A stretch of DNA of 42,175 nt from a virus (IMGVR_UViG_3300045988_088856:1-42175), one strand, 5' to 3'; counted from the stretch's first letter, positions 8,562 through 29,777 are shown. Program-made: numbers and translations. Notes: generated from the sequence alone by a model not told the origin.

Positions 8562-9152
8562 ATGAGAAAGAAAGAATTTTTATACTTGCAATTGTTTGCG
8601 GATGATCCTGGAAGCGGTGACGAAGGAGGTTCTGAACCAGAAGATAAATCGGGTGGCGCCGGAGGCCCAGAGCCACACGAAGATGATCCGAAGCCGGAAA
8701 AGAAATACACCGATGCGGAAGTAGATGAACTCATCAAACGCAAGAAGGCTGAATGGGAGAAGACCAGGCAGAAAGAGGACGATGAGGCAAAGAAGTTTGC
8801 CAAGATGAATGCTCAGGAGAAATCTGAGTACAAACAGCAGCAGCTGGAGAAACGTATCCAGGAGCTGGAGGATGAGAAAACGCTTTCTGGTATGCGTGAT
8901 GAGGCAAGGAAACAGCTTGCGGAGAAAGGAATCAATATTTCCGATGAGCTTCTGGCATTTATGGTGTCTAAGGATGCCAAGGAGACTAAAGAAGCTGTTG
9001 ATTCGTTCGCAAATTTATTTAATGCGGCCGTAAATGAGGCTGTCAAAGGGAAAGCCCGCCAGACCACACCAAAGGAAAGCGGACATTTTTCCAGTGGAAA
9101 GGCCGGCATCAATATTGGTGAGATGGCAAAGAAAGCAAGGATTATTAAATAA
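8562..9152 (+). CDS. Capsid scaffolding protein
   Basis: The protein is acidic and coiled-coil rich and lies directly before the major capsid gene. Its N-terminus is MRKKEFLYLQLFA-DD. Confidence 0.75.
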   Translation: MRKKEFLYLQLFADDPGSGDEGGSEPEDKSGGAGGPEPHEDDPKPEKKYTDAEVDELIKRKKAEWEKTRQKEDDEAKKFAKMNAQEKSEYKQQQLEKRIQELEDEKTLSGMRDEARKQLAEKGINISDELLAFMVSKDAKETKEAVDSFANLFNAAVNEAVKGKARQTTPKESGHFSSGKAGINIGEMAKKARIIK

Positions 9153-9166
9153 TGGAGGTAGATAGA

Positions 9167-10456
9167 ATGAATGTGATGAAACTGAATTTACAGTTGTTTG
9201 CCCAGACATTTGATCCGGATAATGTGACAATGTATGAGCATAAGGACGGAACAATCCCGGAGAAGTACAACACACTGATCCTGGAAGAGATCATGGAGAA
9301 CAGCAAAGTAATGCAGCTGGCCAGATATGAGGAAATGGATAGCAAAGAAAAGAAGTTTGAATATTTCGCAAAAGGACCAGGCGCTTACTGGGTTGGTGAG
9401 GGTGAGAAGATCCAGACATCTAAACCGCAGTGGATGCAGGTAACGATGGTAGCAAAGAAGCTGGGTGTCATCGTTCCATGCTCCAGAGAGTTTCTGCACT
9501 ACAAAATGTCTGACTTCTTTGAGCAGATGCGGCCAAAGATCGCAGAAGCTTTCTATAAGAAATTCGATGAGGCAGCTATCCTAAACATCGAAAACCCGTT
9601 TCCGCAGTCAGTGAATGAATCTGCACTGGCAGCGGGAAATCTCATCAGTGGCGGAATCACTTATGATAACATTCTGGCAATGGAGGATGCTCTGAATGAT
9701 GAGGACTACGATGCGAACGCTTTTATTTCTACGAAGAAGAACCGGAGCACGCTGCGGAACGTCAATAAGATTCAGAATGGCGTGATTGTGGAATCTCTGT
9801 ATGACAGAGGGGCAAATACAATTGACGGTCTTCCGGTTGTAGATTTGAAAGGACTGGATAAGGGGATTCTGTATGCCGGTGATTTCGATTATATGTACTA
9901 CGGCATCCCGTTCGGCATGTCCTACAAGATTGATGAGTCCGCGCAGCTGTCCACACTGAAAAATCCAGACGGTACCCCGGTCAATCTGTTTGAACAGGAG
10001 TTGGCGGCCCTCAGAGTAACGATGGATGTTGCTTTCATGATCGTGAAAGATGAAGCATTTGTGAAATTGGAAACAAAAGCGGAAATCAGTCCGGATAAAC
10101 TGACGATTCCGTCTCAGGGGCAGACCCTGTACGGCAAGAGAATTTCCTCCCTTATCGGAAGCGATGTGAAGGTTTATGAAGACGGAACTGTCACCGGAAC
10201 ATTCAAACACGTGACGGGATACACTGGATTTAATGAAAGTGTGCCGGAAGAACAGGAAGGTTATTTCTTCCCATTTAAACTGACCAAATCCGGAACGAAC
10301 ATGACATTCAAAAAGAACGGTTCTGAAACTAAGCAGAGCATTCCGTGGGAGGCAGATAATGTATTCCGGGTGACGAAAGGGGATACGTTTGAAGTGCTGG
10401 TAGATGAGGAATCTGTAGTTACATTCAACTTTGCCCAGGCTACCTTTGAAAAATAA
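9167..10456 (+). CDS. Major capsid protein with C-terminal Ig-like extension
   Basis: ATG lies 8 nt after GGAGG. The N-terminus MNVMKLNLQLFA-QTF mimics the L27 Prp site. Size and position fit a major capsid protein. Confidence 0.85.
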   Translation: MNVMKLNLQLFAQTFDPDNVTMYEHKDGTIPEKYNTLILEEIMENSKVMQLARYEEMDSKEKKFEYFAKGPGAYWVGEGEKIQTSKPQWMQVTMVAKKLGVIVPCSREFLHYKMSDFFEQMRPKIAEAFYKKFDEAAILNIENPFPQSVNESALAAGNLISGGITYDNILAMEDALNDEDYDANAFISTKKNRSTLRNVNKIQNGVIVESLYDRGANTIDGLPVVDLKGLDKGILYAGDFDYMYYGIPFGMSYKIDESAQLSTLKNPDGTPVNLFEQELAALRVTMDVAFMIVKDEAFVKLETKAEISPDKLTIPSQGQTLYGKRISSLIGSDVKVYEDGTVTGTFKHVTGYTGFNESVPEEQEGYFFPFKLTKSGTNMTFKKNGSETKQSIPWEADNVFRVTKGDTFEVLVDEESVVTFNFAQATFEK

Positions 10457-12755: not shown

Positions 12756-13120
12756 TTGCTTGCCGGGAGGTAACGGAAGCAGATTATGAGGAAATTGCCC
12801 TCACCTGCTTCCGTTTTCTTCATTTGACTTCTTTTACTCAGGTTGATCAGCTCACAATGCGGGAGTATGAGCTGCTGGTAAGGGCGGCAGAACTTCGGGA
12901 TGTGGATACGGACTATCGGTTGCATGAGCAAGCGTTCCTGAATTTTGTGGTGCAGGGACGGAAGAAGAACGGAAGACCAGTTTACCGACGGTTTAAGCAG
13001 TTCTTTAATTACGTGCAGGAAGTCAAAGAAGTCATGGAAAAACGGAAGAAGGAAAAGAAGACAGACAGTCGTTTTGCCAGACTGAGCAAACACTTGAAGG
13101 AGAAAAGAGGTGACGGATAA
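12686..13120 (+). CDS. gpT-like extension of the tail chaperone, reached by -1 frameshift from 12408
   Basis: I checked the -1 frame codon by codon from 12680 to the stop at 13120. There is no convincing independent RBS for the TTG at 12824. Confidence 0.7.
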   Translation, partial: REEQLYEEIDGESADGTQGTPGIIACREVTEADYEEIALTCFRFLHLTSFTQVDQLTMREYELLVRAAELRDVDTDYRLHEQAFLNFVVQGRKKNGRPVYRRFKQFFNYVQEVKEVMEKRKKEKKTDSRFARLSKHLKEKRGDG

Positions 13121-16100
13121 TGCCGGAAAGTTATAGCGTAAAGGCCGTATTGTCTGCGGCGGATTCTGGGTTTACTGCCATGATGAATAAAGCGTCAAAA
13201 GTGACAGATTCTTTCGCGGATAAATTCAAAAGCGGGCTGGGGATTGGCGCCGGCATGGCCGTTGCCAACTCAGCGATCAGTACAGTATCAAACGGTATCC
13301 GGTCCATGGCCGGAGAGCTGAGCTCTGCCACAGCGACCTGGAAGACCTTCCGGTCCAACATGGACATTTCCGGAAAGAGTGAAAAGCAGATTGCCAAAGT
13401 GCAGAAGCAACTGCAGTCATTTGCGGAGCAGACCATTTACAGCTCATCCGATATGGCGTCCACCTATGCGCAGTTGTCGGCAGTCGGTACGAAAAGTACC
13501 ACGAAGCTGGTGAAAGGCTTCGGTGGCCTGGCATCGGCGGCAGAGAACCCTGCGCAGGCCATGAAGACATTGTCGCAGCAGGCAACGCAGATGGCGGCAA
13601 AACCGTACATCCAGTGGCAGGATTTTAAGCTGATGGTGGAACAGACACCGGCCGGCATTGCGGCGGTGGCAAAGCAGATGGGAAGATCAACCCAGCAGCT
13701 CATCAAAGATGTGCAGGCGGGGACCATAAGCACCCAGGAGTTCTTTGACGCCATAGCAGCGGCAGGGACATCCGAGAAATTCACAAAGATGGCAACGACA
13801 TACAAAACGGTCGGACAAGCCATGGATGGCCTGCAGGAGACGGCGGCCAATAAGCTGCAGCCAGCGTTTGAGAAGCTGTCGGATACCGGTGTGAAAGCCA
13901 TTTCGGCCATCATAGATAAACTGAGTGCCATTGACGGAAATGCACTGGCACAGAAGATTACACCGTTTACCAAGGCACTGAATAAAGTCATCAAGGGATT
14001 TTCAGAAGGCGGCATGGAGGGCGGTATCGCAGCCATCGAGCAGCATATGGGAAACCTGATACCAACAGCCCAGAAGATCGGCGGCGTGCTGGTAGCGGCA
14101 TTTGCGGTGACACATATCAATGATTTTGCCGGAGCGTTCCGCGGCGTCACAGGGCTGGTCAGCAAGTTTAAGATTCCGGAGAGCGTAACGAAGGGGCTGA
14201 GTTTTTCCGGAATATCGAAAAGTGCTTTAAAAAATGTCAGAGGTATTAAGAAATCCTTTGCATCCCTTGGCAGCGGCATTGATGATTATGGCGCAAAAAT
14301 CGCGATGTCTATGGAAGCCATCAGTCCGAAACTGTCAGAATCCGGCACCAAAGTATGGAGCGTGTTTGCCAATACGGGAGAAAAGATTTCTGGTTTTGGA
14401 AATAGCATTTCCAAAGGCCTGACCTCAAAAATCAAGGGCGCCACCAGTGCTCTTTCCTCTTTTGGTGGCCGGGTAGGTACAATTCTTGGGCCGATTCAGA
14501 CAGTAGCCAGCAGCATCCTGAATCTGGGAGGTACGGTGGCCAGTGGGCTCACATCCATGATGGGAGTGGCACTCAAGGCGATTATGCCGGCAGCCATGGT
14601 CGGTGTTGTTCTGGCAGGACTGGGACTGATTTATCAGCAGTTCGGAACGCAGATTGACCAGATGCTTGCCATGGCGCAGCAGCAGGGGCCGCAGATTATC
14701 AGTAATCTGGCGAATGGCATATCCAGCGCGCTGCCGGGGCTGATCAGTTCGGGCGCGCAGCTGGTGACTGGTCTGATGAATACAATCACGGCGAACCTGC
14801 CAGCGCTGATCGGTGGCGGTACTCAGATTATCGCGAGTCTTGTCAGCGGCGTGGCAGCAGCGGCACCGTCCCTGATTTCTTCAGCGGCGACCATGATTGG
14901 CCAGTTTGTGGTCAGCGTTGCATCGGCAATCCCGCAGCTGATTACCACGGGTATGCAGCTCCTTCTGGGATTGGCCCAGGGAGTTGTTGCCAGCCTGCCT
15001 ACATTGATCTCATCGGCCACGCAGGCAGTCACGTCGTTTATCAGTGGCATTGGCCAGAACCTGCCGCAGATTTTGACGACAGCAGCGCAGATCATCGCTA
15101 CGCTGGCGGGCGGCCTCATCGCGGCGATCCCGCAGCTGATTTCTGCCATTCCGACGGTCATTTCGTCTCTGGTTGATACAATCATGAGTACGGACTGGAT
15201 TTCAGTAGGTATTCAGATTGTCAGCGCCATTGGAGAGGGTATCTTCGGAGGACTTTCTAAGATTGGCGGAAAGATTGGTTCCTTCTTTGGCGGTATCGGT
15301 GATTGGTTCGCCGGCGGTAAAAAAGGCGGTGAGGAAACGTCTTCTGGTGCTGCAGAGGGAATTGCGGCCGGGTCTTCCAACGTCACCACGGCGGCCTCCA
15401 ATGTGACCAATGATGTGACGCAGACCTTCTCTGCCGGAGCCGGTGCTGCGAAGAGTGCCGGCAGCGAGATTGGCAGCGGGTTCAGTACGGAGTTATTGTC
15501 CGGACTGGGAGATTCCGCATCGATCACGACCCAAAACATGGATGATATCACCTCGTCCATGGAGAAACCAGCGGGAACATCGAAAAAGGCCGGAAAGCAG
15601 ACGGGAACCGGATACACCAATGCCCTGAAAAATGGGTTGAACAAAGCACCAGGCATTGCATCACAGGCAGTATCCAAAGTGATTGCCCGGTTGAATTCCG
15701 GTGCTGCCGGAGCAAGGGCGGCCGGTACCCAGATCAGCGCCGGTTTTGCGGCCGGCATGAACGCTTATCTGTCCCAGATTGAAGCGGCGGCGAGCCGGAT
15801 GGTTGCGGCAGCCAATAAGGCTATCACGGCCAAGGCAAAGATCCATTCTCCGTCCAGAGTGACGGCCGGATATGGTAAAGATTATGTGGCCGGATTCGTT
15901 AAGGCAATCAAAAAGAATACAAAGGCCGCCGCCAAGGCAGCGCGGAGCCTGGCACAAACAACGCTTGCGGCCATGAAACAGGCAATTGCTGGTGGAAATT
16001 ATCAATCTATGGCAGACAGTCTGGGAGAGTCCTATGAGGCGACAGTCAATAAGCAGACCTCCAAGCAGGAAAAGACCATCAAGAAGAAATATAATTCCAT

Positions 16101-17280
16101 CACAAAGCGGCTGGAGAAGTCAGATAAGAAGCTGGAAAAGCAGGAGAAGAAGGCAAAGGGTAACCGGAAGAAGAATATCCAGGCCCAGCGCAAAGAGATT
16201 GAAAAACAGCAAAAAAAGCTGGAGAAGAGCTATAACAAGTATACAAAGTCTCTGGAGAATCAGGCAAGCCAGATGATCTCCGCCACGCAGAGTCAGCTCT
16301 CTTCTCTGGGCGAGACCTTCCAGTCTCAGTACGACGACATCATCAGCAAGAGGGATGCCTTTTATGACAAGCTTTCCGATGTCGGAGATCTGATGACGTC
16401 TGACAGCTATGGATTTACGTCCTTCAAGGACTTTGACGCTGCGACCAAACAGGTGGAGCAGTACGGAAAGAATCTGGAGAAACTGAAAAAGATCATGCCG
16501 AGTGGGTTCATGGATGAGATCCTTGGCATGGACATGGCAGAAGGGCTCAATTATACCAATGCTCTCCTGAAAAAGAGTGACGCTGAACTGATTGCCTACG
16601 GAAAGAGCTATCAAAAATTTACCGATGCGGCAAATAGGGTATCAAAAACCTATTATCAGGAACAGCTGGATCTGCTGAATAAAAACTATATCAGTCAGGT
16701 TACGGCGGCGCTTTCAGAACTGGACGCACAGATCGCGCAGATTGGTAAAAATGTGGCGGAGAGTTTAACGCAAGTGGCCACTACCGTCACAAATACAACT
16801 GTGGGAAAACAGATTTCAGCGACTACTAAGATCGGCGAGGATATCTCGTCTGGGTTAGCCAATGGTATTTCGTCCAAAAAGAGCCAGAAAAAGGTAAAAA
16901 AGGCCACGAAGAAGACGGCAAAAACGGCGACCAAAAACACCAAAAAGAAGCTGAAATCGCATTCTCCGTCCAAAGTATTTTATGGTATCGGCGCAGATAC
17001 TATCCAGGGATTTGTCAATGCGGTCCTGGGCATGCGGCATGTGGTCGCACGGACCATGGACCGGGTAATCAGCATTCCGGCCACGCCGCGCATGGCCTTC
17101 GCGGGCAGTTATGATGGAGAACTCAACGAAAAGTACCAATATGGTTACTATATGGACGGAACGATTGAAGTACCGGTTGTCATTGATGGCAAAGAAGTGG
17201 CCAGAGTATCTGCGCCATATACGGCCGTACAGCTGAACAAACAGCAGAAGCGGGAAAACCGGAAGAAAGGCATTGCATAA
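13120..17280 (+). CDS. Tape measure protein
   Basis: The protein is 1386 aa with Ala/Gly-rich hydrophobic repeats and coiled coils, and lies after the chaperone pair. Confidence 0.9.
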   Translation: MPESYSVKAVLSAADSGFTAMMNKASKVTDSFADKFKSGLGIGAGMAVANSAISTVSNGIRSMAGELSSATATWKTFRSNMDISGKSEKQIAKVQKQLQSFAEQTIYSSSDMASTYAQLSAVGTKSTTKLVKGFGGLASAAENPAQAMKTLSQQATQMAAKPYIQWQDFKLMVEQTPAGIAAVAKQMGRSTQQLIKDVQAGTISTQEFFDAIAAAGTSEKFTKMATTYKTVGQAMDGLQETAANKLQPAFEKLSDTGVKAISAIIDKLSAIDGNALAQKITPFTKALNKVIKGFSEGGMEGGIAAIEQHMGNLIPTAQKIGGVLVAAFAVTHINDFAGAFRGVTGLVSKFKIPESVTKGLSFSGISKSALKNVRGIKKSFASLGSGIDDYGAKIAMSMEAISPKLSESGTKVWSVFANTGEKISGFGNSISKGLTSKIKGATSALSSFGGRVGTILGPIQTVASSILNLGGTVASGLTSMMGVALKAIMPAAMVGVVLAGLGLIYQQFGTQIDQMLAMAQQQGPQIISNLANGISSALPGLISSGAQLVTGLMNTITANLPALIGGGTQIIASLVSGVAAAAPSLISSAATMIGQFVVSVASAIPQLITTGMQLLLGLAQGVVASLPTLISSATQAVTSFISGIGQNLPQILTTAAQIIATLAGGLIAAIPQLISAIPTVISSLVDTIMSTDWISVGIQIVSAIGEGIFGGLSKIGGKIGSFFGGIGDWFAGGKKGGEETSSGAAEGIAAGSSNVTTAASNVTNDVTQTFSAGAGAAKSAGSEIGSGFSTELLSGLGDSASITTQNMDDITSSMEKPAGTSKKAGKQTGTGYTNALKNGLNKAPGIASQAVSKVIARLNSGAAGARAAGTQISAGFAAGMNAYLSQIEAAASRMVAAANKAITAKAKIHSPSRVTAGYGKDYVAGFVKAIKKNTKAAAKAARSLAQTTLAAMKQAIAGGNYQSMADSLGESYEATVNKQTSKQEKTIKKKYNSITKRLEKSDKKLEKQEKKAKGNRKKNIQAQRKEIEKQQKKLEKSYNKYTKSLENQASQMISATQSQLSSLGETFQSQYDDIISKRDAFYDKLSDVGDLMTSDSYGFTSFKDFDAATKQVEQYGKNLEKLKKIMPSGFMDEILGMDMAEGLNYTNALLKKSDAELIAYGKSYQKFTDAANRVSKTYYQEQLDLLNKNYISQVTAALSELDAQIAQIGKNVAESLTQVATTVTNTTVGKQISATTKIGEDISSGLANGISSKKSQKKVKKATKKTAKTATKNTKKKLKSHSPSKVFYGIGADTIQGFVNAVLGMRHVVARTMDRVISIPATPRMAFAGSYDGELNEKYQYGYYMDGTIEVPVVIDGKEVARVSAPYTAVQLNKQQKRENRKKGIA

Positions 17281-17295
17281 AGGAGGGAGAAGACA

Positions 17296-18129
17296 ATGAT
17301 GTATTCGTTTGTAGATACCAATGGATGTCCGTCGGATACCGCTCTTCCGGCAGAGGCGATGAATTTCAACGGTGTCTTCCTGGAAAATGAGATAGAGGGG
17401 TACCGGACGCTTTATGTGAGCGGCCGGGAATCCCTGGCTCCGGAGCTGGATACCTATGATACCGGCGCTAGGGCGGGAGCGTCATTAAAACGCCGGCGCT
17501 TCCCTACCCGACCGATAACAGTCGGATATCAGCTACTGTCCCGGACACCGGAAGACTTCCGGCAGGCATTTAACAAGATGGCCCGGATTTTAAATGTTCA
17601 GGAAGGCCGGATGGTGTTTGCGGATGAACCGGATAAATATTTCACGGGAACCTTGTCCAGCATGGGTGATATTGAGCCTGGCAGAAATAACATCACAGCA
17701 GAATTGGAATTCACCTGTCTGGATCCGTTCAAATATTCCGTGGAAGAAACCTTGTATTCCCTGCGGACTCTGAGCCGCGTCGAATACGAGGGAACACAGC
17801 CGTGTTATCCGCGGATCCGCTGGGACATCAAGGGTAATACTGGGTATGTGGGCGCGTTCCTGAGGGATGCGTCTACAATTATTCAGATTGGAAATCCGGA
17901 TGAAAGCCAGATGACCAGTAACACCTTCGCCGCCGGCGACGTGGTGGTGGCGGATTGCGCCAGCGCAACTATCACTGTCAACGGCGTGATACGGGATGAC
18001 CTGGGCGCTGTGGGTAATGACTGGGAGTCATTTTTGCTGACGCCAGGAGAAAATCTCATCGGCGCCTTGTCTTCTTCCTGGGCGCAACGCCCGGATATCA
18101 CACTTGCCGTGCGGGAGGTGTGGTTATGA
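17296..18129 (+). CDS. Distal tail protein (Dit)
   Basis: The protein is 277 aa and lies directly after the tape measure. Confidence 0.7.
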   Translation: MMYSFVDTNGCPSDTALPAEAMNFNGVFLENEIEGYRTLYVSGRESLAPELDTYDTGARAGASLKRRRFPTRPITVGYQLLSRTPEDFRQAFNKMARILNVQEGRMVFADEPDKYFTGTLSSMGDIEPGRNNITAELEFTCLDPFKYSVEETLYSLRTLSRVEYEGTQPCYPRIRWDIKGNTGYVGAFLRDASTIIQIGNPDESQMTSNTFAAGDVVVADCASATITVNGVIRDDLGAVGNDWESFLLTPGENLIGALSSSWAQRPDITLAVREVWL

Positions 18130-19370
18130 TCTTATATTTTGCAGATAAGAACCTGACTATTATCGGAAAGGCGTCCACGAATCTGCCAAAAGGCTATGAG
18201 GTGAAAAATGATAAAAAGACCGAAGACATAGAGACGCAGGCGGTGTCGTTTGAATGCGAGATTCCCTACGGGGATACGCCGGTAAAATGCGATAACCTGA
18301 CAACGCCAGGGAATTATATCCTGCGCCAGAACAGCGACGATATTAATGAGTTGTACCAGATCATTGAATCTGAGAAAGATACGGACGCCGGGATTATCCG
18401 GATCTATGGGGAAGATGTAGGGATGGATCTGCTGAACGAAGTGGCGCTTTCCTCTCCAAATGATACGCCGATATGGACGGTAACAGAAGCGGTGCAAAAT
18501 ACCATTGTGGATACTGGTTTTGTCATCGGCATCAATCAGTTGGCTGAATCCACAACAACAATGGCCTGCAGCTTTTCGGAGCAGACCCGCTCTGAGCGTA
18601 TCAAAGAGATTGCGGAGCTGTTTGAGTGTGAAACTGATTACCGGATAACACTGAGTGCGGACGGCCACACCGTGGAACACAAATATATTGACATATACAC
18701 GAAGCGGGGCACGGACAGCGGCGTGACGCTGCGTTTGGGTACCGATATCGACAGTATCGCCGTGACCAAGACGATCGAGAATCTGGCCACGTCCATTTAT
18801 GCCTATGGCGCCAATGATGCCGGTGGGAATCCGATCACGCTGGCCGGATACAGCTATGATGACGGCGACTTTGTTGTGGCGGCTCAGACATTTGATGACC
18901 GGGACGGGAACGGGACGCCGGATACCGGTTACTGTATCCAATCCCGGAAAGCCCTGGAAAAGTGGGGCCGGATGGTAGACGGCCAGAAGCGTCACATCAC
19001 GAAGCCCTATAATGTCGATACAGTGGATCAGGCCACGCTGTTCAGTGAATCACTAAAATATCTGAAATCTATCTGTGATATCGCAGTAAATTACGAGTGC
19101 AGTATCACGAACCTGCAGAAAAAGGTTTCCCTGGGTGATACGGTGACGGTCATTGATGAGGAAGGGCAATTGTTTTTGACCTCCCGGGTATTAAAGCTGG
19201 AGACGTCAGAGGCAGACAAGACGGTTACAGTCACGCTGGGAGAGCACCTGATCCAGTCCGGCGGCATCGCACAGTCAGTTCGGGACAGCGTTGCACAGAT
19301 GATTAGCAGTATAACATCGGCGCAAATGACAGAAATGACCGCAGACCAGGTCAGGGAAATATGCACGTAG
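18126..19370 (+). CDS. Tail-associated/baseplate hub protein (Tal-like N-terminal domain)
   Basis: ATG lies 6 nt after GGGAGGTG. The N-terminus MILYFADKNLTIIG is typical of this family in siphophages. Confidence 0.65.
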   Translation: MILYFADKNLTIIGKASTNLPKGYEVKNDKKTEDIETQAVSFECEIPYGDTPVKCDNLTTPGNYILRQNSDDINELYQIIESEKDTDAGIIRIYGEDVGMDLLNEVALSSPNDTPIWTVTEAVQNTIVDTGFVIGINQLAESTTTMACSFSEQTRSERIKEIAELFECETDYRITLSADGHTVEHKYIDIYTKRGTDSGVTLRLGTDIDSIAVTKTIENLATSIYAYGANDAGGNPITLAGYSYDDGDFVVAAQTFDDRDGNGTPDTGYCIQSRKALEKWGRMVDGQKRHITKPYNVDTVDQATLFSESLKYLKSICDIAVNYECSITNLQKKVSLGDTVTVIDEEGQLFLTSRVLKLETSEADKTVTVTLGEHLIQSGGIAQSVRDSVAQMISSITSAQMTEMTADQVREICT

Positions 19371-20245: not shown

Positions 20246-20434
20246 ATGGACGTGACAATCAAGGGGATGCAGATACAGGGCACACTGTATTTATTCAAAG
20301 ATGCGGTGGCAAGGGCAACTACGGCAGATTTAAATACCAAGATAGCAATCACGCAAGACGATATTGATGAGGTCTGCGTGACGACAGAGCAGGCAGAAGT
20401 GGTAACATCAACAGGAACGGAGGGCGATGTATAA
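20246..20434 (+). CDS. Small hypothetical protein with ITQDDIDEVCVTTE motif
   Basis: ATG follows GGGAGGTG. The C-terminal motif is repeated in the ORF at 25817. Confidence 0.55.
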   Translation: MDVTIKGMQIQGTLYLFKDAVARATTADLNTKIAITQDDIDEVCVTTEQAEVVTSTGTEGDV

Positions 20435-20895
20435 TGGCAACAGCATTAACATTAAAACAGGCGATTGCAGCAGTATGGCAGAAATTCATGGGAGTGATTG
20501 GATATGCAGACATTTCCGGCATTGGCGACGGGACAGTCAAGGGCGCCATTGCTGGATTAAATGGGAATACAGTATTTTATGCAAATGCTTTTTCTACTCA
20601 GCAGGGAGCGACAATAAACAGCGACTACACTTACGCCATTAAACAAGGAAAGATTGTTCATTTAGTTATACGGTTCACAACTGGGCAATACAAAGATGTT
20701 TCCTTGCGCATGATTCAGCTGCCGGAAGCACTTAAGCCAGCAAGAAGCTCTCATCCATTTGCGTGCGAAACATGGCAAACAGGAGTTGGCCAAGTCCAAC
20801 TAAATGCCGAAGGCTGCCATATACGTCCAACAACAGGAACGAAGGTGTCTACTGATTATACTTTAGATTGCGTATATATTGCCGCCGATTATTAA
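20434..20895 (+). CDS. Receptor-binding protein: constant N-terminus (aa 1-45) plus currently expressed cassette 1
   Basis: The start is coupled as TAATG. At 153 aa and placed after a BppU-like gene, it resembles a BppL-type RBP. Crossover site A encodes L42-N45. Confidence 0.7.
   Translation: MATALTLKQAIAAVWQKFMGVIGYADISGIGDGTVKGAIAGLNGNTVFYANAFSTQQGATINSDYTYAIKQGKIVHLVIRFTTGQYKDVSLRMIQLPEALKPARSSHPFACETWQTGVGQVQLNAEGCHIRPTTGTKVSTDYTLDCVYIAADY
20556..20569 (+). repeat. Shufflon crossover site A (ATTAAATGGGAATA)
   Basis: This 14-mer is identical to sites B (inverted) and C. Confidence 0.8.
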
Positions 20896-21152
20896 TAGAA
20901 TCCAATGATAGTCACGTGATAAACTCCCGCGCTGGAAGCTGTGCAATACATAGTTGTATTATTTTCAACCGTCGCATTACAGACATATGTGGTTCCCGAC
21001 CGCCGACCGCCAATAGCAACTACTTTTTTGGCTGATGGATATTCTGTTGATACGTCAACAGCGCCACTGGAATGACCGCCTTCTGGAAGACTCGTGCCAA
21101 TTTCGACTTGAATCTCCCGGTATTGGATTTTATTAGTTATATTCCCATTTAA
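20892..21152 (-). other. Silent RBP cassette 2 (start-less 86-codon open frame)
   Basis: I translated it codon by codon: LNGNITNKIQYREIQVEIGTSLPEGGHSSGAVDVSTEYPSAKKVVAIGGRRSGTTYVCNATVENNTTMYCTASSAGVYHVTIIGFY*. A TGA lies immediately 5' of the Leu codon. Its stop overlaps the cassette 1 stop. Confidence 0.75.
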
Positions 21153-21153
21153 T
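21140..21153 (-). repeat. Shufflon crossover site B (inverted ATTAAATGGGAATA)
   Basis: The + strand reads TATTCCCATTTAAT. Confidence 0.8.
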
Positions 21154-21246
21154 CAATTAATGGATTGGTGTATTGGTTGGTGTATGGGATTGGTGCAACC
21201 TTTTCTGTATAATTTGATTATCAATTATACGGAGGAGGTATTTTTT

Positions 21247-22239
21247 ATGAAGGAAAAGCTGATATCTGCTGTATTGGAGAAGATGCATGGACATCTGCAG
21301 CCTGATCAGGCGACGATGCTGCAGTGGGTGATGTCGGTTGTGCTGGACGATTATTCGGTGGAGCGAAAATCCACCGAAGTCACCGTGTACGATGGCAGCG
21401 CGGAGGAGTATGCAAAGAGATTTTTGGTGGTCAAACATCTGGCGGGGTGCTCTGAGAGGACCATCGAATCATACCGTTTTAACTTGCAGAAATTTATCCT
21501 GAATCTGCGGCGGCCATTGCTGGAAACAGATACAAATGACATCCGGTGTTATCTGGCGGCGTACAAGGAGCGGCGGAAAGTCAGCAATACCACCCTGAAT
21601 AATATGCGCGCCAGCTTATCCAGTTTCTTTACGTGGTTGCATGAGGAAGGGCTGATTGCCAAAAACCCAATGCGCCGGATTCCGCCGATTAAGGCACCGA
21701 AGGTAATCCGCCAACCGTTTACGCCGGAGGATATGGAGCACCTGCGGATGGAGTGCCAACAGGAACGCGATCTGGCCATTATGGAATTTTTGTATTCCAC
21801 CGGCGTTCGCGTCAGCGAAGCAGTACAGCTAAACCGTGACCAGATTAATTTTATTGAAGGAGAGTGTATCGTATATGGAAAGGGGGCGAAAGAGCGGGAA
21901 GTATTCATCAATCCGCGGACATGTATCCATTTGAAAAAGTATCTGGATTCCCGGACGGACAACAACCCAGCATTATTTGTCTGGACGAAAAAACCGCATC
22001 GGAGACTATCCGAAAAGGGAATCTGGGCGTTGCTGCATAATCTGGGGCAGCGGGCCGAAGTGGAGAAAACGCACCCGCATCGATTCCGGCGGACACTGGC
22101 AACTGATGCCCTGAATCGGGGGATGCCGTTGCAAGAGGTGCAGCAGATGCTAGGGCATGAAAAGGCGGATACAACGTTGATTTACTGTACAGTGACCAAA
22201 GATAGTGTAAAGATGTCGCATCGTAAATATATAGCATAA
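21247..22239 (+). CDS. Tyrosine site-specific recombinase (XerC/D / Rci-like), candidate shufflon invertase
   Basis: ATG follows GGAGGAGG. It has an N-terminal SAM-like domain, Arg in STGVRVSEA, HRFRRT, LGH and the catalytic Tyr in LIYCTV. Confidence 0.85.
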   Translation: MKEKLISAVLEKMHGHLQPDQATMLQWVMSVVLDDYSVERKSTEVTVYDGSAEEYAKRFLVVKHLAGCSERTIESYRFNLQKFILNLRRPLLETDTNDIRCYLAAYKERRKVSNTTLNNMRASLSSFFTWLHEEGLIAKNPMRRIPPIKAPKVIRQPFTPEDMEHLRMECQQERDLAIMEFLYSTGVRVSEAVQLNRDQINFIEGECIVYGKGAKEREVFINPRTCIHLKKYLDSRTDNNPALFVWTKKPHRRLSEKGIWALLHNLGQRAEVEKTHPHRFRRTLATDALNRGMPLQEVQQMLGHEKADTTLIYCTVTKDSVKMSHRKYIA

Positions 22240-22321
22240 CTTGTAAGTAATCCTTACAGGTTCATTTAAGCCTGCGGAAACGGAGGTTTTATTTGTATGT
22301 CATGATTTCGTAACTATAAAT

Positions 22322-22347
22322 AAGGTTCGCTCTTAATTAAATGGGAA
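22322..22347 (+). repeat. Left arm of 26-bp inverted repeat (AAGGTTCGCTCTTAATTAAATGGGAA)
   Basis: It matches the reverse complement of 22931-22956 at 25 of 26 positions. Confidence 0.9.
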
Positions 22348-22349
22348 TA
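22336..22349 (+). repeat. Shufflon crossover site C (ATTAAATGGGAATA)
   Basis: Identical 14-mer. TAA at 22334-22336 immediately precedes the TTA AAT GGG frame. Confidence 0.8.
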
Positions 22350-22687
22350 TGAACTGGTCCGATGCAATCACCCTGGGATCTACTTACGGCATTGAAATGA
22401 AATATCGGTATAATGCCAAATTTGTAGAAATACAATACGGTGGGACATTACCTGATGGTGTTGGATTTGGTGCAGGTACAAATGGTTATGAGTTTCCATC
22501 TATGCCGGAAGAATTCCTTCCAGGTTCAAATATTCGGCAACCGATTTTTTGCCCTGGGAACGGAAACAAACTATGTATTCGTATATATCCGTGGGCTACA
22601 GACAAATGGTCTATAGCCCCTGGAAGTATGGGGCTTACCTCCGTACCAGAGTATATTGCAGGAACGTTCGTATACGCTAGAAGGTAG
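22337..22687 (+). other. Silent RBP cassette 3
   Basis: The frame LNGN-MNWSDAITLG...FVYARR* opens exactly at the crossover site. There is no RBS before the internal ATG at 22349. Confidence 0.7.
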
Positions 22688-22695
22688 ATATATGA

Positions 22696-22941
22696 TTATT
22701 CGAAATAAATAACCCTAATATAATAATTTCCGGATGTAACGGAATTTCCTGTCCACGGATTAAAGACTCGATACCAAGCTTGACTATCAGTCGACATTTG
22801 TCGGAGTTCGTATTGTTCGTTTAATAAGATAACATTTATTAAACGTTCGTCAGAACAAATATGCCTTACATTAAACATACCGTGCTCGTTGAGAGTTACT
22901 GAATCATGTTTATACACAATTCTTGTTAACTTCCCATTTAG
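22696..22941 (-). other. Silent RBP cassette 4
   Basis: The frame LNGKLTRIVYKHDSVTLNEHG...YYIRVIYFE* opens at site D, with TAA immediately 5'. It is convergent with cassette 3, with an 8-nt gap. Confidence 0.7.
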
Positions 22942-22942
22942 T
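22929..22942 (-). repeat. Shufflon crossover site D (inverted ACTAAATGGGAAGT, 12/14)
   Basis: The + strand reads ACTTCCCATTTAGT. Confidence 0.7.
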
Positions 22943-22956
22943 TAAGAGCGAACCTT
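22931..22956 (-). repeat. Right arm of 26-bp inverted repeat
   Basis: The + strand reads TTCCCATTTAGTTAAGAGCGAACCTT. Confidence 0.9.
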
Positions 22957-22997
22957 CACGGGACCTTCGGGTCTTTTTTTTGATGGAGGTAATAAAA

Positions 22998-23923: not shown

Positions 23924-24160
23924 ATGTTTAAAAATAGCGTATTGAAACCGGATGTTGACACAGTAGAATGGTGCAAAAAAGCCGGCATCCGTGCAGTAAA
24001 AACCATGGCACAGTCTGCGATCGGCGCGATCGGCGCCGCAGCCACAATGGGCGCGGTCGATTGGCGCATTGTCGGATCCACCGCGGCACTGGCAGGGGTG
24101 CTGTCAATATTGACATCAGTAGCCGGTATCCCGGAGGTAGAAGGGACGGTGAGTGAATAA
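23924..24160 (+). CDS. Holin (phi LC3 / LLH-type)
   Basis: ATG follows AGGAGG. The sequence AGIRAVKTMAQSAIGAIGAAATMGAVDW...ALAGVLSILTSVAG has two hydrophobic segments. Confidence 0.7.
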   Translation: MFKNSVLKPDVDTVEWCKKAGIRAVKTMAQSAIGAIGAAATMGAVDWRIVGSTAALAGVLSILTSVAGIPEVEGTVSE

Positions 24161-25053
24161 TGGCAGTACAATCGGTCAAGGCCAAAATAAACGGCCAGAC
24201 AGTTAATTTGACCTATAATGATGGAACCGGTTTCTGGGAAGCGACGACAACGGCGCCAACGTCGTCATCTTATAATCAGCCTGGACATTATTACGGCGTG
24301 GAGATTACGGCTACAGACGATTCTGGCAATGACACGACCATCAACGCATCAACGGGCGATTTCCAGGAAGAATGCCAGCTGATCGTAAAAGAGAAGATTG
24401 TACCGGTCATCACGATCAACAGTCCAACATCAGGGGCGCATATCACGAACAATAAACCGACCATCCAGTTTAGTATCACCGATGATGATTCTGGCGTAGA
24501 TCCGGATACGATCACGGTCAAGATTGACAACGGCAGCGCCATATCGACAGGCATCACAAAGACTCCATCCGGCAAGGGATATACCTGTTCGTATACACCG
24601 GAAACAGCGCTGGGTGATGGCAGCCATACCATTTACATCAATGCCAGTGACCATGACGGAAATGCGGCGGCCCAGAAGTCGGTGCAGTTTACCGTGGATA
24701 CAGTGGCACCAACGCTCAATATTTCTTCACCGGCTGATAACTTAAAGACTAATGAAGACTCTGTAACGGTATCTGGTACGACCAATGACGCAACGTCTAG
24801 TCCGGTTACATTGACTATTAATGGTGACCCGGTGACAGTTCAGTCCAATGGTTCATTTAGCAAAGTGGTCAACCTGACTGAGGGCGAGAATACCATTACT
24901 ATCATTGCTACCGACAGCGCTGGAAAGAGCACGACTATTGTCCGTCACGTAACGAAAGATACTGGGGCACCGGTATTTGTAAGCGTGGAAATTGTTGATA
25001 ATCCGGTGGACGCCGGGGATACATATGTGATCCGCGTCAAAGTTACGGACTAA
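24160..25053 (+). CDS. Ig-like repeat structural/adhesion protein
   Basis: It has repeated Ig-like modules (VPVITINSPTSG..., VDTVAPTLNISSPADN..., TGAPVFVSVEIVDNPV). Confidence 0.6.
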   Translation: MAVQSVKAKINGQTVNLTYNDGTGFWEATTTAPTSSSYNQPGHYYGVEITATDDSGNDTTINASTGDFQEECQLIVKEKIVPVITINSPTSGAHITNNKPTIQFSITDDDSGVDPDTITVKIDNGSAISTGITKTPSGKGYTCSYTPETALGDGSHTIYINASDHDGNAAAQKSVQFTVDTVAPTLNISSPADNLKTNEDSVTVSGTTNDATSSPVTLTINGDPVTVQSNGSFSKVVNLTEGENTITIIATDSAGKSTTIVRHVTKDTGAPVFVSVEIVDNPVDAGDTYVIRVKVTD

Positions 25054-27044: not shown

Positions 27045-28520
27045 TTATGAATAATAGTAATACAGGCTAAGAGAATCGGTCTGGCGATCGTAGACAACCT
27101 TTTCAACCACGGAACGGATGGCAGACGCTTTTCTATCGTAATCAGCGTTCTCGTCCTTCAGCACATCGACAGCAGTCCGGATGCCGGCCAGAATGACCGG
27201 AGAATAATCAATATCGGCAGTGGTGGTCTTTGCCTTTAATAGGGATTCCAGCTCCGCCCGCTCTTTTTGTAAGATCTCTTTATTCTCTTTATATTCCGCC
27301 AAAGTGTCTACGCCATTTCGGTACGCTTCCTTGATGCGGGACTCTTTCTGCTCCAGCTTCTGCAGCTGTTCTTCCAGCAGGCTGGTGTCCTCATCGGTCG
27401 GGCGCCGGTTCTTCAGTAATTCATAATCAATGGTATTGGTTTGTAGTGTATCTTCCAGGGCGGCGATAACTTCCTGCTCCAGCTTTTTGCCGGGGATGCC
27501 ATTGGATGTGCTGCACTGCCCCTTGGTGTAACCGTGACATTGAAAATATTCATACCGGCTCTTACCACTCTTGTTCATGGTATTGTGATAGGAGAGAGAG
27601 CGACCGCAGTTCGGACATTTGACGATGCCGGATAGCCAGTGCTTCCGCAGGCTGATCTTGGCGGCTTTCGGTGCAAAATCATGCAGCCGCTTCTCGTGTG
27701 CTTTATCCCACAGATCCTCCGGGATGATGGCCGGATGATTGGATTTTCGGATGATGCCGTTCTCTGCGTTCTTCAGTTTCCTTTCTTTTGTATTCCCGTC
27801 CCAGCGGACATACCCCTTGTAAAACGGGTTGTCAATAATATACTGTACACCGCGGTTGTCGAAGTTGTTTCCGCGCTTGGTCTTGTATCCGAGACTATTC
27901 AAATCCTTAGCAATCTGCAGGAAGGACATACCATTGATATAGTTGTCATAGATCCTGCGGATGATCCGGGCCTCCTCCGGGACAATGACTGGCGGGTGCC
28001 CTTTGGCTTTGACTGCATAGCCCAGCGGTGGTGCCGTCTGAAATCCACCCCGCAGCGCTTTCTCCGTCATGCCACGCTTTACGTCTTCGGCCAGACGCAC
28101 AGAATAGAACTCATCCATCCATTCGATGATTCTCTCAATCAGGTCCCCGAACATTCCGTCAATGACCGGTTCCGATATGCTCACGACATCCACACCGCAT
28201 TTATTCCGCAGCAAAGATTTATAGACGATGCTTTCTTCCTGATTTCGGGCAAATCGGGAAAATTTCCAGACCAGAATCACATCGAATGGCCGGGGCGTTG
28301 TTTTGGCGGCGGCAATCATGCGCTGGAACTGCGGACGCTTCTTGGCAGATTTGCCGGATATACCGCTTTCAATGTAGATGTTGTCAGATGGCAGATAGAT
28401 ATGATTTTTCTTGGCGTAGTCTCTGATCAGACGCTTCTGGGCGTCTGGAGAGAGCTCCTCCTGCTTGCCGTGGGTGGAAACCCGGATGTAGGCGGCGCCG
28501 GTACGGGTTGTGGTTGGCAT
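27045..28520 (-). CDS. int: Large serine recombinase (integrase)
   Basis: It has an N-terminal resolvase domain (AAYIRVST), a recombinase domain, a zinc ribbon (CPNCGRSLSYH...FQCHG) and a C-terminal coiled coil. Confidence 0.9.
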   Translation of the reverse strand: MPTTTRTGAAYIRVSTHGKQEELSPDAQKRLIRDYAKKNHIYLPSDNIYIESGISGKSAKKRPQFQRMIAAAKTTPRPFDVILVWKFSRFARNQEESIVYKSLLRNKCGVDVVSISEPVIDGMFGDLIERIIEWMDEFYSVRLAEDVKRGMTEKALRGGFQTAPPLGYAVKAKGHPPVIVPEEARIIRRIYDNYINGMSFLQIAKDLNSLGYKTKRGNNFDNRGVQYIIDNPFYKGYVRWDGNTKERKLKNAENGIIRKSNHPAIIPEDLWDKAHEKRLHDFAPKAAKISLRKHWLSGIVKCPNCGRSLSYHNTMNKSGKSRYEYFQCHGYTKGQCSTSNGIPGKKLEQEVIAALEDTLQTNTIDYELLKNRRPTDEDTSLLEEQLQKLEQKESRIKEAYRNGVDTLAEYKENKEILQKERAELESLLKAKTTTADIDYSPVILAGIRTAVDVLKDENADYDRKASAIRSVVEKVVYDRQTDSLSLYYYYS

Positions 28521-28561
28521 AGTATCACGCTCCTTCTTTTGTATGTATAAGCAAAAATGGG

Positions 28562-28610
28562 TACAAAAATAACAGCCAGCGGGAAACGGATGTTCCGCTT
28601 GCGGTGGCTG
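28562..28610 (-). terminator. Minus-strand intrinsic terminator between the HNH gene and int
   Basis: A compound hairpin (CAGCCAGCGG...CCGCTTGCGGTGGCTG) is followed on the minus strand by TTATTTTTG. Confidence 0.5.
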
Positions 28611-28730
28611 CCCGGAGATGATACAATATTATTGAACGTACTGCGGTCATCTTCGGATCCGTGGTCTAATAATGAGATACCCGTATGGATTACGGGTGCA
28701 GGATTCTTGTTGGGAAGAAATCCTGTGATT

Positions 28731-28766
28731 TTCCGCTCCTGTTGGCGCAGGGGCGGAGTTTTTAGT
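28731..28766 (+). terminator. Plus-strand intrinsic terminator-like hairpin with no upstream plus-strand gene
   Basis: A ~10-bp stem (CCGCTCCTG/CAGGGGCGG) with a 6-nt loop is followed by TTTTTAGTTTTT. Confidence 0.45.
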
Positions 28767-28768
28767 TT

Positions 28769-29734
28769 TTAAATTTTAGCGCCTTTCTTACGATTACAAC
28801 GCCAGCAAAGCGTTTGCAAATTCTCTTCAGTGGTCAAACCTCCTTTAGAGACTGGTATGATATGATCAATTTCAAGAAGAAGATTTGGTTCTTGCTCAAC
28901 AGAAGCGCCACACTGCTTACATGTGAATCCGTCACGCTCCTTGATATGCTGACGAAGCTTGCTGGTCATAAGGGCTCGTTGACCGGCAACACTCTTTTTA
29001 AATTTAATCTTTTCAGATAAAAACGTAACAAATTTATTCAGATTCTCGATATCCATTACAACATCGCATTCAGTGGAAGCGTTTCCTCCAGAACTGATAT
29101 ATTTAAAAATGTATTTTGGAAAATAATCCGTACTCATATCAATTTCTTCAAAACCAAGTTTTTGCTCCAGTTTCTTTTTGCTGAATTTTTTTATAAGAGT
29201 AGGAATTTCAGTTTGAATACTATCAAGAATTTGTTTCTTTTCTGCTTGTAAATGATTCTTTCCTTCCTCAGCCGCCTCAAAATTATTTAAAATGTTCTCA
29301 AAACCTGTAAGGTATTCTTCGGTGGCTTTTATACCGAAGTATTTACAAATATATTCAAATGGTTTCTTGCGTGCGTTATCACAAACTGTGCGGGAACAAT
29401 TATGTATATTTGGGGAATATTGCTGTTCTTTTAAATGTTTTCTTTTATAATCCCATTTACTGGAATCGCTATAAGTTGCATTGCCGTAATCTGTCTTGTC
29501 TGCCGGTAAAGCAGTGTGTTTCAAATTTTCAATATGCTCATTCAGTTCATTGCAATCATTGATGTATGCATCTATACGCTGTTTAACATCTGTAAATTTT
29601 GTACTTTTATAATAAAAAGATTCATATATTTTCCAAACGACATAGATGGCAGCAAGTAATAAAAAAATTGGCCAGATAGCACTTATAAAATATATAATCA
29701 ATGCTATGATAATAATGGCTACAATAAATTGCAT
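28769..29734 (-). CDS. Membrane-anchored HNH endonuclease-domain protein (moron)
   Basis: ATG at 29734 lies 5 nt after AAGGAGG. It has an N-terminal hydrophobic hairpin (MQFIVAIIIIALIIYFISAIWPIFLLLAAIYVVW). The C-terminal HNH is RDGFTCKQCG...LEIDHIIPVSKGG...NLQTLCWRCNRKKG. The gene is AT-rich. Confidence 0.75.
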   Translation of the reverse strand: MQFIVAIIIIALIIYFISAIWPIFLLLAAIYVVWKIYESFYYKSTKFTDVKQRIDAYINDCNELNEHIENLKHTALPADKTDYGNATYSDSSKWDYKRKHLKEQQYSPNIHNCSRTVCDNARKKPFEYICKYFGIKATEEYLTGFENILNNFEAAEEGKNHLQAEKKQILDSIQTEIPTLIKKFSKKKLEQKLGFEEIDMSTDYFPKYIFKYISSGGNASTECDVVMDIENLNKFVTFLSEKIKFKKSVAGQRALMTSKLRQHIKERDGFTCKQCGASVEQEPNLLLEIDHIIPVSKGGLTTEENLQTLCWRCNRKKGAKI

Positions 29735-29777
29735 AATATCCTCCTTTGTAATAAATATCATCATAATTATTTTTTTA

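Follow-up and report, generated by a model that had tools for sequence, protein, structure and literature searches.

We analysed a locus composed of one expressed gene, three silent gene ends and a recombinase gene in a viral DNA stretch of 42,175 nucleotides (IMGVR_UViG_3300045988_088856:1-42175), the whole of which is called the window here. The expressed gene (20434-20895, + strand) encodes a distal tail protein of 153 amino acids (aa), a putative receptor-binding protein, and its start codon overlaps the stop codon of the preceding tail open reading frame (ORF) in the sequence TAATG. Residues 1 to 45 of this protein (20434-20568) form its constant part and the remainder forms head A (20569-20892). 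Silent cassette B (20892-21152, - strand) lies tail-to-tail with head A and consists of 86 codons counted from a leucine codon, followed by TAA TAA, while cassettes C (22337-22687, + strand) and D (22696-22941, - strand) consist of 116 and 81 codons, respectively, each counted from its leucine codon and followed by a stop codon. None of the three silent heads has a start codon or a ribosome-binding site of its own. Translation of these frames bore out the first-pass annotation of this DNA, according to which each of them opens at the leucine codon right after a stop codon (TGA, TAA and TAA for B, C and D, respectively) and the expressed protein carries L42-N-G-N45 at the corresponding point. 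All four heads are intact and are 99-100% identical to copies that are expressed elsewhere. The ends of heads A and B meet in the palindrome TATTAATA (20889-20898), which gives a tyrosine codon and a stop codon on each strand; the two stop codons overlap, so that the cassettes adjoin without a spacer.

Between the two cassette pairs, where it had been predicted, we confirmed the gene (21247-22239, + strand) of a 330-aa Xer-like tyrosine recombinase of family PF00589. This gene is intact and the catalytic residues R188, K215, H278, R281, H304 and Y313 are all present. Only a SAM-like domain and the catalytic Phage_integrase domain were found, with no arm-binding domain, and the Xer-like alignment extends over residues 47-324. 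The closest structural relative is an XerC-like tyrosine recombinase (PDB 4a8e, E = 1e-35), and the protein scored 229 bits, with a cut-off of 220, against the NCBIfam model recomb_XerA_Arch ('site-specific tyrosine recombinase/integron integrase'). Upstream of the gene, an imperfect hairpin of 17 pairs (21198-21239, + strand) covers the TATAAT box and the GGAGG ribosome-binding site.

Four crossover sites are found at the locus in the order + - + -, which had been noted before and which holds in the window and in every close relative. Site 1 (20553-20572, + strand; TGGAT-TAAATGGGAA-TACAG) lies within the expressed gene and codes for G41-L-N-G-N45. Site 2 (21137-21156; TTGAT-TAAATGGGAA-TATAA on the - strand) and site 3 (22333-22352, + strand; TTAAT-TAAATGGGAA-TATGA) lie on either side of the recombinase gene and have a TGA and a TAA stop, respectively, directly 5' of the leucine codon. 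The left arm of site 4 (22926-22945; TTAAC-TAAATGGGAA-GTTAA on the - strand) forms an inverted repeat of 26 nucleotides (nt) with the left arm of site 3, and both sites are embedded in this repeat (22322-22347 and 22931-22956). The 14-mer ATTAAATGGGAATA occurs exactly at 20556-20569 (+), 21140-21153 (-) and 22336-22349 (+), as had been reported; the fourth copy (22929-22942, -), said to match at 12 of 14 positions, matched at 11 of 14 when we counted them, its 10-bp core being exact. The invariant part is the 10-mer TAAATGGGAA, of which the window contains five copies (0.34 expected), a number reached in 0 of 100 shuffles.

The consensus of 39 distinct sites, obtained as a logo, is about 20 bp long and asymmetric: T(T/G)GAT-TAAATGGGAA-(T/G)ATAA. 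The left arms are specific to the slot (GCCATTGCTGGAT at site 1, ..TTAATTGAT or CAGCTGATTGAT at site 2, and AGGYTCAGCTCTTGAT at sites 3 and 4) and each cassette has its own right flank, cassette C being seen on all four left arms in relatives. Since the left arm is fixed to the slot and the right flank moves with the cassette, the exchange is bracketed by bases -1 and +10, inside TAAATGGGAA. The left arms of sites 2-4 include the in-frame stop (TGA or TAA) that precedes each silent cassette, where site 1 has GGA instead: a thymine at position -4 makes the stop codon in sites 2-4, and the guanine found there in site 1 makes a glycine codon.

The fifth exact TAAATGGGAA (10268-10277, - strand) lies inside a 434-aa ORF of the head module (9152-10456). 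Its left flank is CAGTT and not T(T/G)GAT, and because the conserved left arm is absent we treat it as probably due to chance; should the left arm prove dispensable, this copy would be an off-target site. An inverted near-copy of the site (TTGATAAATGGGAT or TTGGTAAATGGGAA) is present beside site 2, toward the recombinase gene, in the relatives L002, L007-L010, L070, L076 and L079, where it forms with site 2 a palindrome upstream of the recombinase TATAAT box. This palindrome and the hairpin at 21198-21239 may autoregulate or throttle the expression of the recombinase.

Fusions and rearrangements in related contigs

A search with the 153-aa product retrieved 72 proteins, 69 of which keep the N-terminus up to G-L-N-G-(N/K) and then split into 17 unrelated head families. 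Among the proteins from public metagenomes, the constant 45 aa are followed by cassette B in P0023 and by cassette C in P0024, both at 100% identity, and by cassette D in P0026, with one residue different. All four fusions exist as called proteins.

We then compared the relatives as contigs encoding the fusion proteins, mapped onto the window. The locus comprises three invertible segments, namely module 1 (A and B, tail-to-tail), the recombinase segment and module 2 (C and D, tail-to-tail). Module 1 was inverted in L001-L004 and L086-L092 (constant part, B on the + strand, A on the - strand, recombinase), so that B is the expressed head there, and a 112-aa minus-strand ORF of L089 mapped to cassette A. 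The C/D pair occupied slot 1 in both orientations, one in L005 and L006 and the other in L007-L010, where D is expressed, and L014 had it in slot 2 with its orientation reversed. The recombinase segment was inverted in L076 and L091, with junctions joining a cassette to the site-3 arm and the site-2 arm to a cassette. Comparison of L076 and L002, whose backbones are 97.6-97.8% identical, showed two adjacent inversions, the ends of which have the site (15-16 nt) in common. Each of the three segments was found inverted in some relative, and the breakpoints were always inside the 10-bp core.

The ends of many contigs also coincided with the sites. Contigs from four different samples (L087, L088 (= L004), L089 and L006) end 0-5 nt past the site-2 core. 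Many of the contigs carrying the recombinase are 1.18-1.29 kb long, the size of the segment from site 2 to site 3, and 8 of the 10 contigs with P0093, a protein of the sister lineage described below, span 1176-1226 bp, which is again the size of that segment. In L103, which has an 89% identical recombinase, one head cassette is joined at both site 2 and site 3 and the contig has an exact terminal inverted repeat of 47 nt; in L095 the same cassette is present on both ends of the recombinase segment, with a terminal inverted repeat of 25 nt. Assemblers yield such contig ends and terminal repeats when both orientations coexist, and these patterns suggest mixed isoforms within samples. No single sample with two different expressed heads was found, none being shared among the samples listed for P0001, P0002, P0003, P0023, P0024 and P0026.

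Contig L078 (ENA ERZ24773328, 2179 bp, coverage 2.3) consists of the constant part, A (+), B (-), the site-4 left arm and a downstream gene of 177 aa, with no recombinase or module 2. It may result either from a deletion between the direct sites 2 and 4, which would lock the phage, or from a chimeric path taken by the assembler through a mixed population.

Proposed recombination scheme and alternatives

The locus has the features of a shufflon: at least three sites in mixed orientation, independently invertible segments, and a constant 5' part with 3' cassettes devoid of expression signals. In the scheme that we propose, the recombinase would join any + site with any - site, strand exchange taking place within the 10-bp core. 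Recombination between sites 1 and 2 would swap A and B, that between sites 3 and 4 would swap C and D, that between sites 2 and 3 would flip the recombinase segment, and that between sites 1 and 4 would flip the whole locus and bring D to the expression site. Combined inversions would put each head in frame after Gly44-Asn/Lys45 of the constant N-terminus, the 45 aa of which presumably anchor the protein to the tail tip. The silent heads would be kept off by the lack of a start codon and a ribosome-binding site, together with the stop codons with which the left arms of sites 2-4 shield them.

We consider it highly likely that the heads are reshuffled by site-specific recombination at these sites, carried out by this recombinase. 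The first-pass annotation had read the locus as a shufflon of four C-terminal heads on a constant N-terminus of 45 aa, and both the three predicted fusions and the inversions with core breakpoints in relatives support that reading. The shufflon is very probably run by the phage's own tyrosine recombinase, the product of the gene at 21247-22239 being the candidate catalyst. Switching is presumably frequent, and the heads would bind different receptors, thus changing the host range.

Several observations weigh against this reading. Among contigs with backbones at least 99% identical, we found no two that differed by an inversion alone, the closest approach being the pair L076 and L002 at 97.6-97.8%, and inversion was not seen directly in the window's own population, the comparison being one of assembled contigs and not of reads. 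Sites 1 and 3 are direct repeats, as are sites 2 and 4, so that inversion should face competition from deletion. Co-existing strains or duplicated cassettes could also account for the patterns at contig ends and in terminal repeats, and cassette pairs are 99-100% identical across backbones that are 89-94% identical. As for the protein itself, the 153-aa product had no sequence match in Pfam, PHROGs or NCBIfam, the AlphaFold model of its A form is of low confidence (predicted local distance difference test, pLDDT, of 54), and the model of head B, which is confident, had no significant match in the PDB (best E-value 0.095).

The gap in identity between modules and backbones shows that part of the variation between contigs is exchange between phages and not switching within a genome. 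When L005 was compared with L010, the module was 100% identical over 609 bp and the backbone 93%; when the window was compared with L002 and L004, these values were 99.3% and 90-91%, respectively. The recombinase protein of L012 is identical to that of the window, and similarity between the two breaks at 20567 and resumes at 21142, so that module 1 alone has been replaced, precisely between sites 1 and 2. The modules would thus move between phages, for which a double site-specific crossover (cassette exchange) seems the simplest route. That the sites are mainly crossover points for module swaps between co-resident phages or prophages, within-genome inversion being rare or incidental, is nevertheless improbable. 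The modules of 603-609 bp that are 99-100% identical on backbones of 89-94% (L005 and L010; the window and L002, L004 and L010), the exact replacement between sites 1 and 2 in L012 and the pairing of two N-terminal alleles, each with many of the same head families, agree with such a role, but the same module is found in both orientations and in both slots, the headless recombinase segment is inverted as well, and the patterns at contig ends and in terminal repeats are suggestive of within-sample mixtures. One process does not preclude the other, and we think that both occur. It is possible, and we put this forward tentatively, that the four-site design is a natural platform for recombinase-mediated cassette exchange in addition to a phase-variation switch, with two-head modules traded between gut Lachnospiraceae phages and prophages, and with divergent backbones sharing at least 17 heads in a pool that is partitioned by at least two recombinase/core classes (TAAATGGGAA and AATAGCAAT).

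A switch that worked in ancestors and became fixed in this phage is very unlikely. Fixation would fit the single arrangement reported for the contigs that share both the neighbouring genes and the exact recombinase of the window (L011 and three similar places), but the recombinase gene is intact with all its catalytic residues, the four cores are exact, and the four heads are as intact and as close to their expressed copies as stated above. We regard as most unlikely of all a static mosaicism arising by ordinary homologous or illegitimate recombination among related phages, the recombinase serving in, for example, dimer resolution or integration: phage tail genes are known mosaics and NCBIfam puts the recombinase in the Xer/integron-integrase family and not in a named invertase model, but dozens of junctions break inside the 10-bp invariant core, which is too short for RecA-type exchange, the segments have been turned round and not just exchanged, the silent frames are uninterrupted, lack promoters and are shielded by stop codons, the core varies together with the recombinase in the sister lineage, and a separate serine integrase is present.

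The identity of the product as a receptor-binding protein and the variation in host range, both claimed in the earlier annotation, were not upheld, their basis being the gene context and weak fold matches. The top PDB fold matches of the A form were almost all siphophage receptor-binding proteins (PSA gp15, TP901-1 ORF49 and the p2 head; 6r5w, 4hep, 2f0c and 2bse, with E from 1e-3 to 1e-2 and template modelling (TM) scores of 0.40-0.45), and the low confidence of the A-form model makes these matches merely suggestive. Searches of the PDB with the 153-aa protein, by sequence and by profile, gave chance matches to Rab-43 only. For the B form, AlphaFold predicted a confident beta-sandwich head (pLDDT about 90), the L-N-G junction being a hinge of low confidence (below 50), and the head-B model had marginal BFVD matches to phage tail or baseplate proteins. 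The position, size and hypervariability of the protein are consistent with a BppL-like protein. TP901-1 BppL and PSA gp15 are small proteins (about 150-170 aa) encoded after Dit and Tal and made up of an N-terminal anchor, a linker and a beta-sandwich head, and the position and size of the window's protein fit this description. An exhaustive HMMER search with head A returned only 9 homologues, too few for a good model. In a 622-aa metagenomic protein (P0073), 11 separate stretches match residues 30-81 of head A, which indicates that part of the head fold is present elsewhere as a tandem repeat.

Homologous recombinases and known systems

In a sister lineage (P0093/P0097; L104-L107) the recombinase is 67% identical, the four-site layout is the same, the core is AATAGCAAT and the junction is L-N-S-N. 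The genes follow one another in the order tape measure gene, 229-aa ORF, Tal, small receptor-binding-protein gene, recombinase, cassettes and holin, and the heads are homologous to families found in the lineage of the window. The association of a 67% identical recombinase with a changed core indicates that recombinase and core co-vary. A 44% identical recombinase is encoded between two hsdS half-gene pairs of a type I restriction-modification inverton in the human faecal 'Bacteriophage sp.' MT835621.1 (L074), in which four sites with the core TAAATGATAATTTA have the + - + - layout of the window; this suggests that the design is passed between genes for hsdS and for phage receptor-binding proteins. 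Together, this inverton homologue and the co-variation in the sister lineage tie the window's recombinase to inversion.

More distant loci were also compared. The locus of a 43% identical recombinase (L071) was rejected as comparable, for it adjoins methylase genes and not tail genes. Xer-like recombinases that are 32-35% identical are encoded between tail and lysis genes, and annotated 'integrase', in Terrisporobacter phage TPELB_ph1 (L072, 17645-18640), where a second 'integrase' gene is nearby, and in C. perfringens phage phiCp-D (L073, 21639-22616); we looked for a four-site repeat set around these two genes and found none that was comparable. In contig L105 of the sister lineage (ENA ERZ28597095, 6022-9993), the fourth site is located in a second receptor-binding-protein-like gene on the opposite strand (…AELNSN-head, 165 aa), and this gene adjoins a gene for a 1303-aa Peptidase_S74 fibre that replaces the usual downstream lysis genes. 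Two phages may have co-integrated in L105, or the contig may have undergone a large rearrangement or been misassembled.

The statement in the first-pass annotation that no example of such a system was known does not hold, as Bifidobacterium prophages were reported in 2018 to carry the Rin shufflon (PMC6109161). Mavrich et al. presented Rin as the first phage-encoded tyrosine DNA invertase acting on the C-termini of receptor-binding proteins; it is Xer-like without an arm domain, its target has a constant N-terminus and several dissimilar C-terminal cassettes with 11-bp rix sites, and its inversions were observed in prophage and virion genomes of Bifidobacterium breve/longum prophages (PMC6109161). 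The Rin system was later found in Eggerthella lenta prophages (PMC8778435). Rin and the window share a phage-encoded Xer-like recombinase without an arm domain at the receptor-binding-protein locus of a siphophage with a Gram-positive gut host, a constant N-terminal part followed by C-terminal cassettes that lack promoters and do not resemble one another, a short asymmetric repeat preceding each cassette (the 11-bp rix and the 10-bp invariant core, respectively) at which the inversions occur, and a separate integrase elsewhere in the genome. They differ in their hosts, which are Actinomycetota for Rin and Bacillota (Lachnospiraceae) for the window, and in their repeats, the core TAAATGGGAA (reverse complement TTCCCATTTA) having only TTCCC in common with the rix site TTCCCTAACCC. 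The Rin recombinase gene flanks one side of the cassette array, whereas that of the window is central, between two two-cassette modules, on a segment that is itself invertible. The protein of the window is also much smaller (111-166 aa) than that of Rin, whose recombinase we compared by description and not by sequence, and the window's lineage differs in the evidence for a head pool shared between phages with at least two recombinase/core classes.

The R64 shufflon (Rci, sfx and pilV) resembles the window in that a tyrosine recombinase performs multiple inversions that join one constant N-terminus to alternative C-termini. The sfx sites of R64 are asymmetric, with a conserved core plus one arm, and R64 has the same problem of deletion between direct repeats. 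The target in R64 is, however, a conjugative pilus adhesin encoded on a plasmid and not a phage distal tail protein encoded in a tape measure-Dit-Tal module, and the recombinase gene is outside the invertible region in R64 but inside it in the window. No Rci-specific similarity was seen in the window's recombinase, the best family matches of which are of the Xer type. The Gin (Mu), Cin (P1) and Min (p15B) systems also switch the C-termini of phage tail fibres by site-specific inversion, and Min is a multi-segment shufflon. These are serine invertases that work with an enhancer and Fis, whereas the window's recombinase is of the tyrosine type (PF00589) and the window encodes a single serine recombinase, a 491-aa protein of the large integrase type whose gene is downstream of the locus. 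Gin, Cin and Min moreover co-invert a gene for a fibre-assembly chaperone, of which there is none in the window, and belong to myophages or plasmid prophages of Gram-negative hosts.

A 2026 preprint described an active multi-cassette tail-fibre shufflon in BV01-like phages of Phocaeicola vulgatus (PMC13596623). It resembles the window in being phage-encoded, with several cassettes flanked by a recombinase, 10-bp directional motifs and alternative tail-fibre ends, and all of its configurations were seen in reads. It differs in its Bacteroidota host, in its motif TGGGAGAACT and in having three cassettes, with six isoforms, distally in a large fibre gene. Tyrosine-recombinase hsdS invertons are well studied, as for PsrA of S. 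pneumoniae (PMC7096588) and in a survey (PMC7672463). They swap specificity domains by inversion at short repeats, as in the window, but their target is the specificity subunit of a DNA methylase and not a virion protein, and the likeness to the window rests on the MT835621 homologue and not on PsrA.

The mechanism has thus been described in Bifidobacterium and Bacteroides phages, and what is new here, as far as our literature search found, is the Clostridia (Bacillota) phage host together with this layout; the search did not find such a system in Clostridia phages. Shuffling of receptor-binding proteins by a tyrosine recombinase would thereby be extended from phages of Actinomycetota and Bacteroidota to phages of Bacillota. 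To our knowledge, few gut Lachnospiraceae phages have been cultured, and the determinants of their host range are largely unknown. Under the shufflon reading, the one prophage studied here could give four different tail tips, and at least 17 heads appear to be pooled among related phages through the same short junction. Loci of this kind break metagenome assemblies and confuse strain-level analyses of viromes, and a host predicted from one assembled isoform can be misleading. The combination of a 45-aa anchor, exchangeable heads of 66-121 aa and a site of about 20 bp is also an attractive scaffold for the engineering of phage host range.

Genomic context and host

The locus is located at the distal end of a tail module of the siphophage type, in which the tape measure gene (13120-17280), Dit (17296-18129) and Tal (Prophage_tail; 18120-19370) are followed by three small ORFs, the 153-aa gene, the cassettes with the recombinase gene and a terminator-like hairpin. 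This hairpin (22960-22981, + strand) comes directly after site 4 and is followed by a T-run; it would close the transcription unit of the shufflon. On its 3' side are a gene encoding a 181-aa protein without assigned function, an XhlA-like gene and the holin gene.

Comparison of the window with public assemblies showed that contig k119_11075 (ENA ERZ27239400) is 100% identical to it over the 7,754 bases compared, and the locus DNA gave no match when searched against 50,697 phage records. Bins that contain close relatives are those of an uncultured Eubacteriales bacterium and of Candidatus Anaerobutyricum faecale; one relative is present in the genome of Eubacterium sp. An11. The hosts are gut Clostridia, with Anaerobutyricum a member of the Lachnospiraceae.

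About 4 kb downstream of site 4, a large serine recombinase of 491 aa is encoded on the - strand (27045-28520), with Resolvase, Recombinase and zinc-ribbon domains, and is likely the phage integrase. In the region 27045-29764 of this strand, the serine recombinase is followed by a protein of 331 aa that has an HNH domain at its C-terminus and gave weak matches to IscB and Cas9d HNH models. The gene that comes next after the holin gene (24160-25053, + strand) codes for a 297-aa protein with Ig-like domains of the types Big_13 and Glucodextran_B; this is an unusual position for a protein of the cell-surface-binding type.

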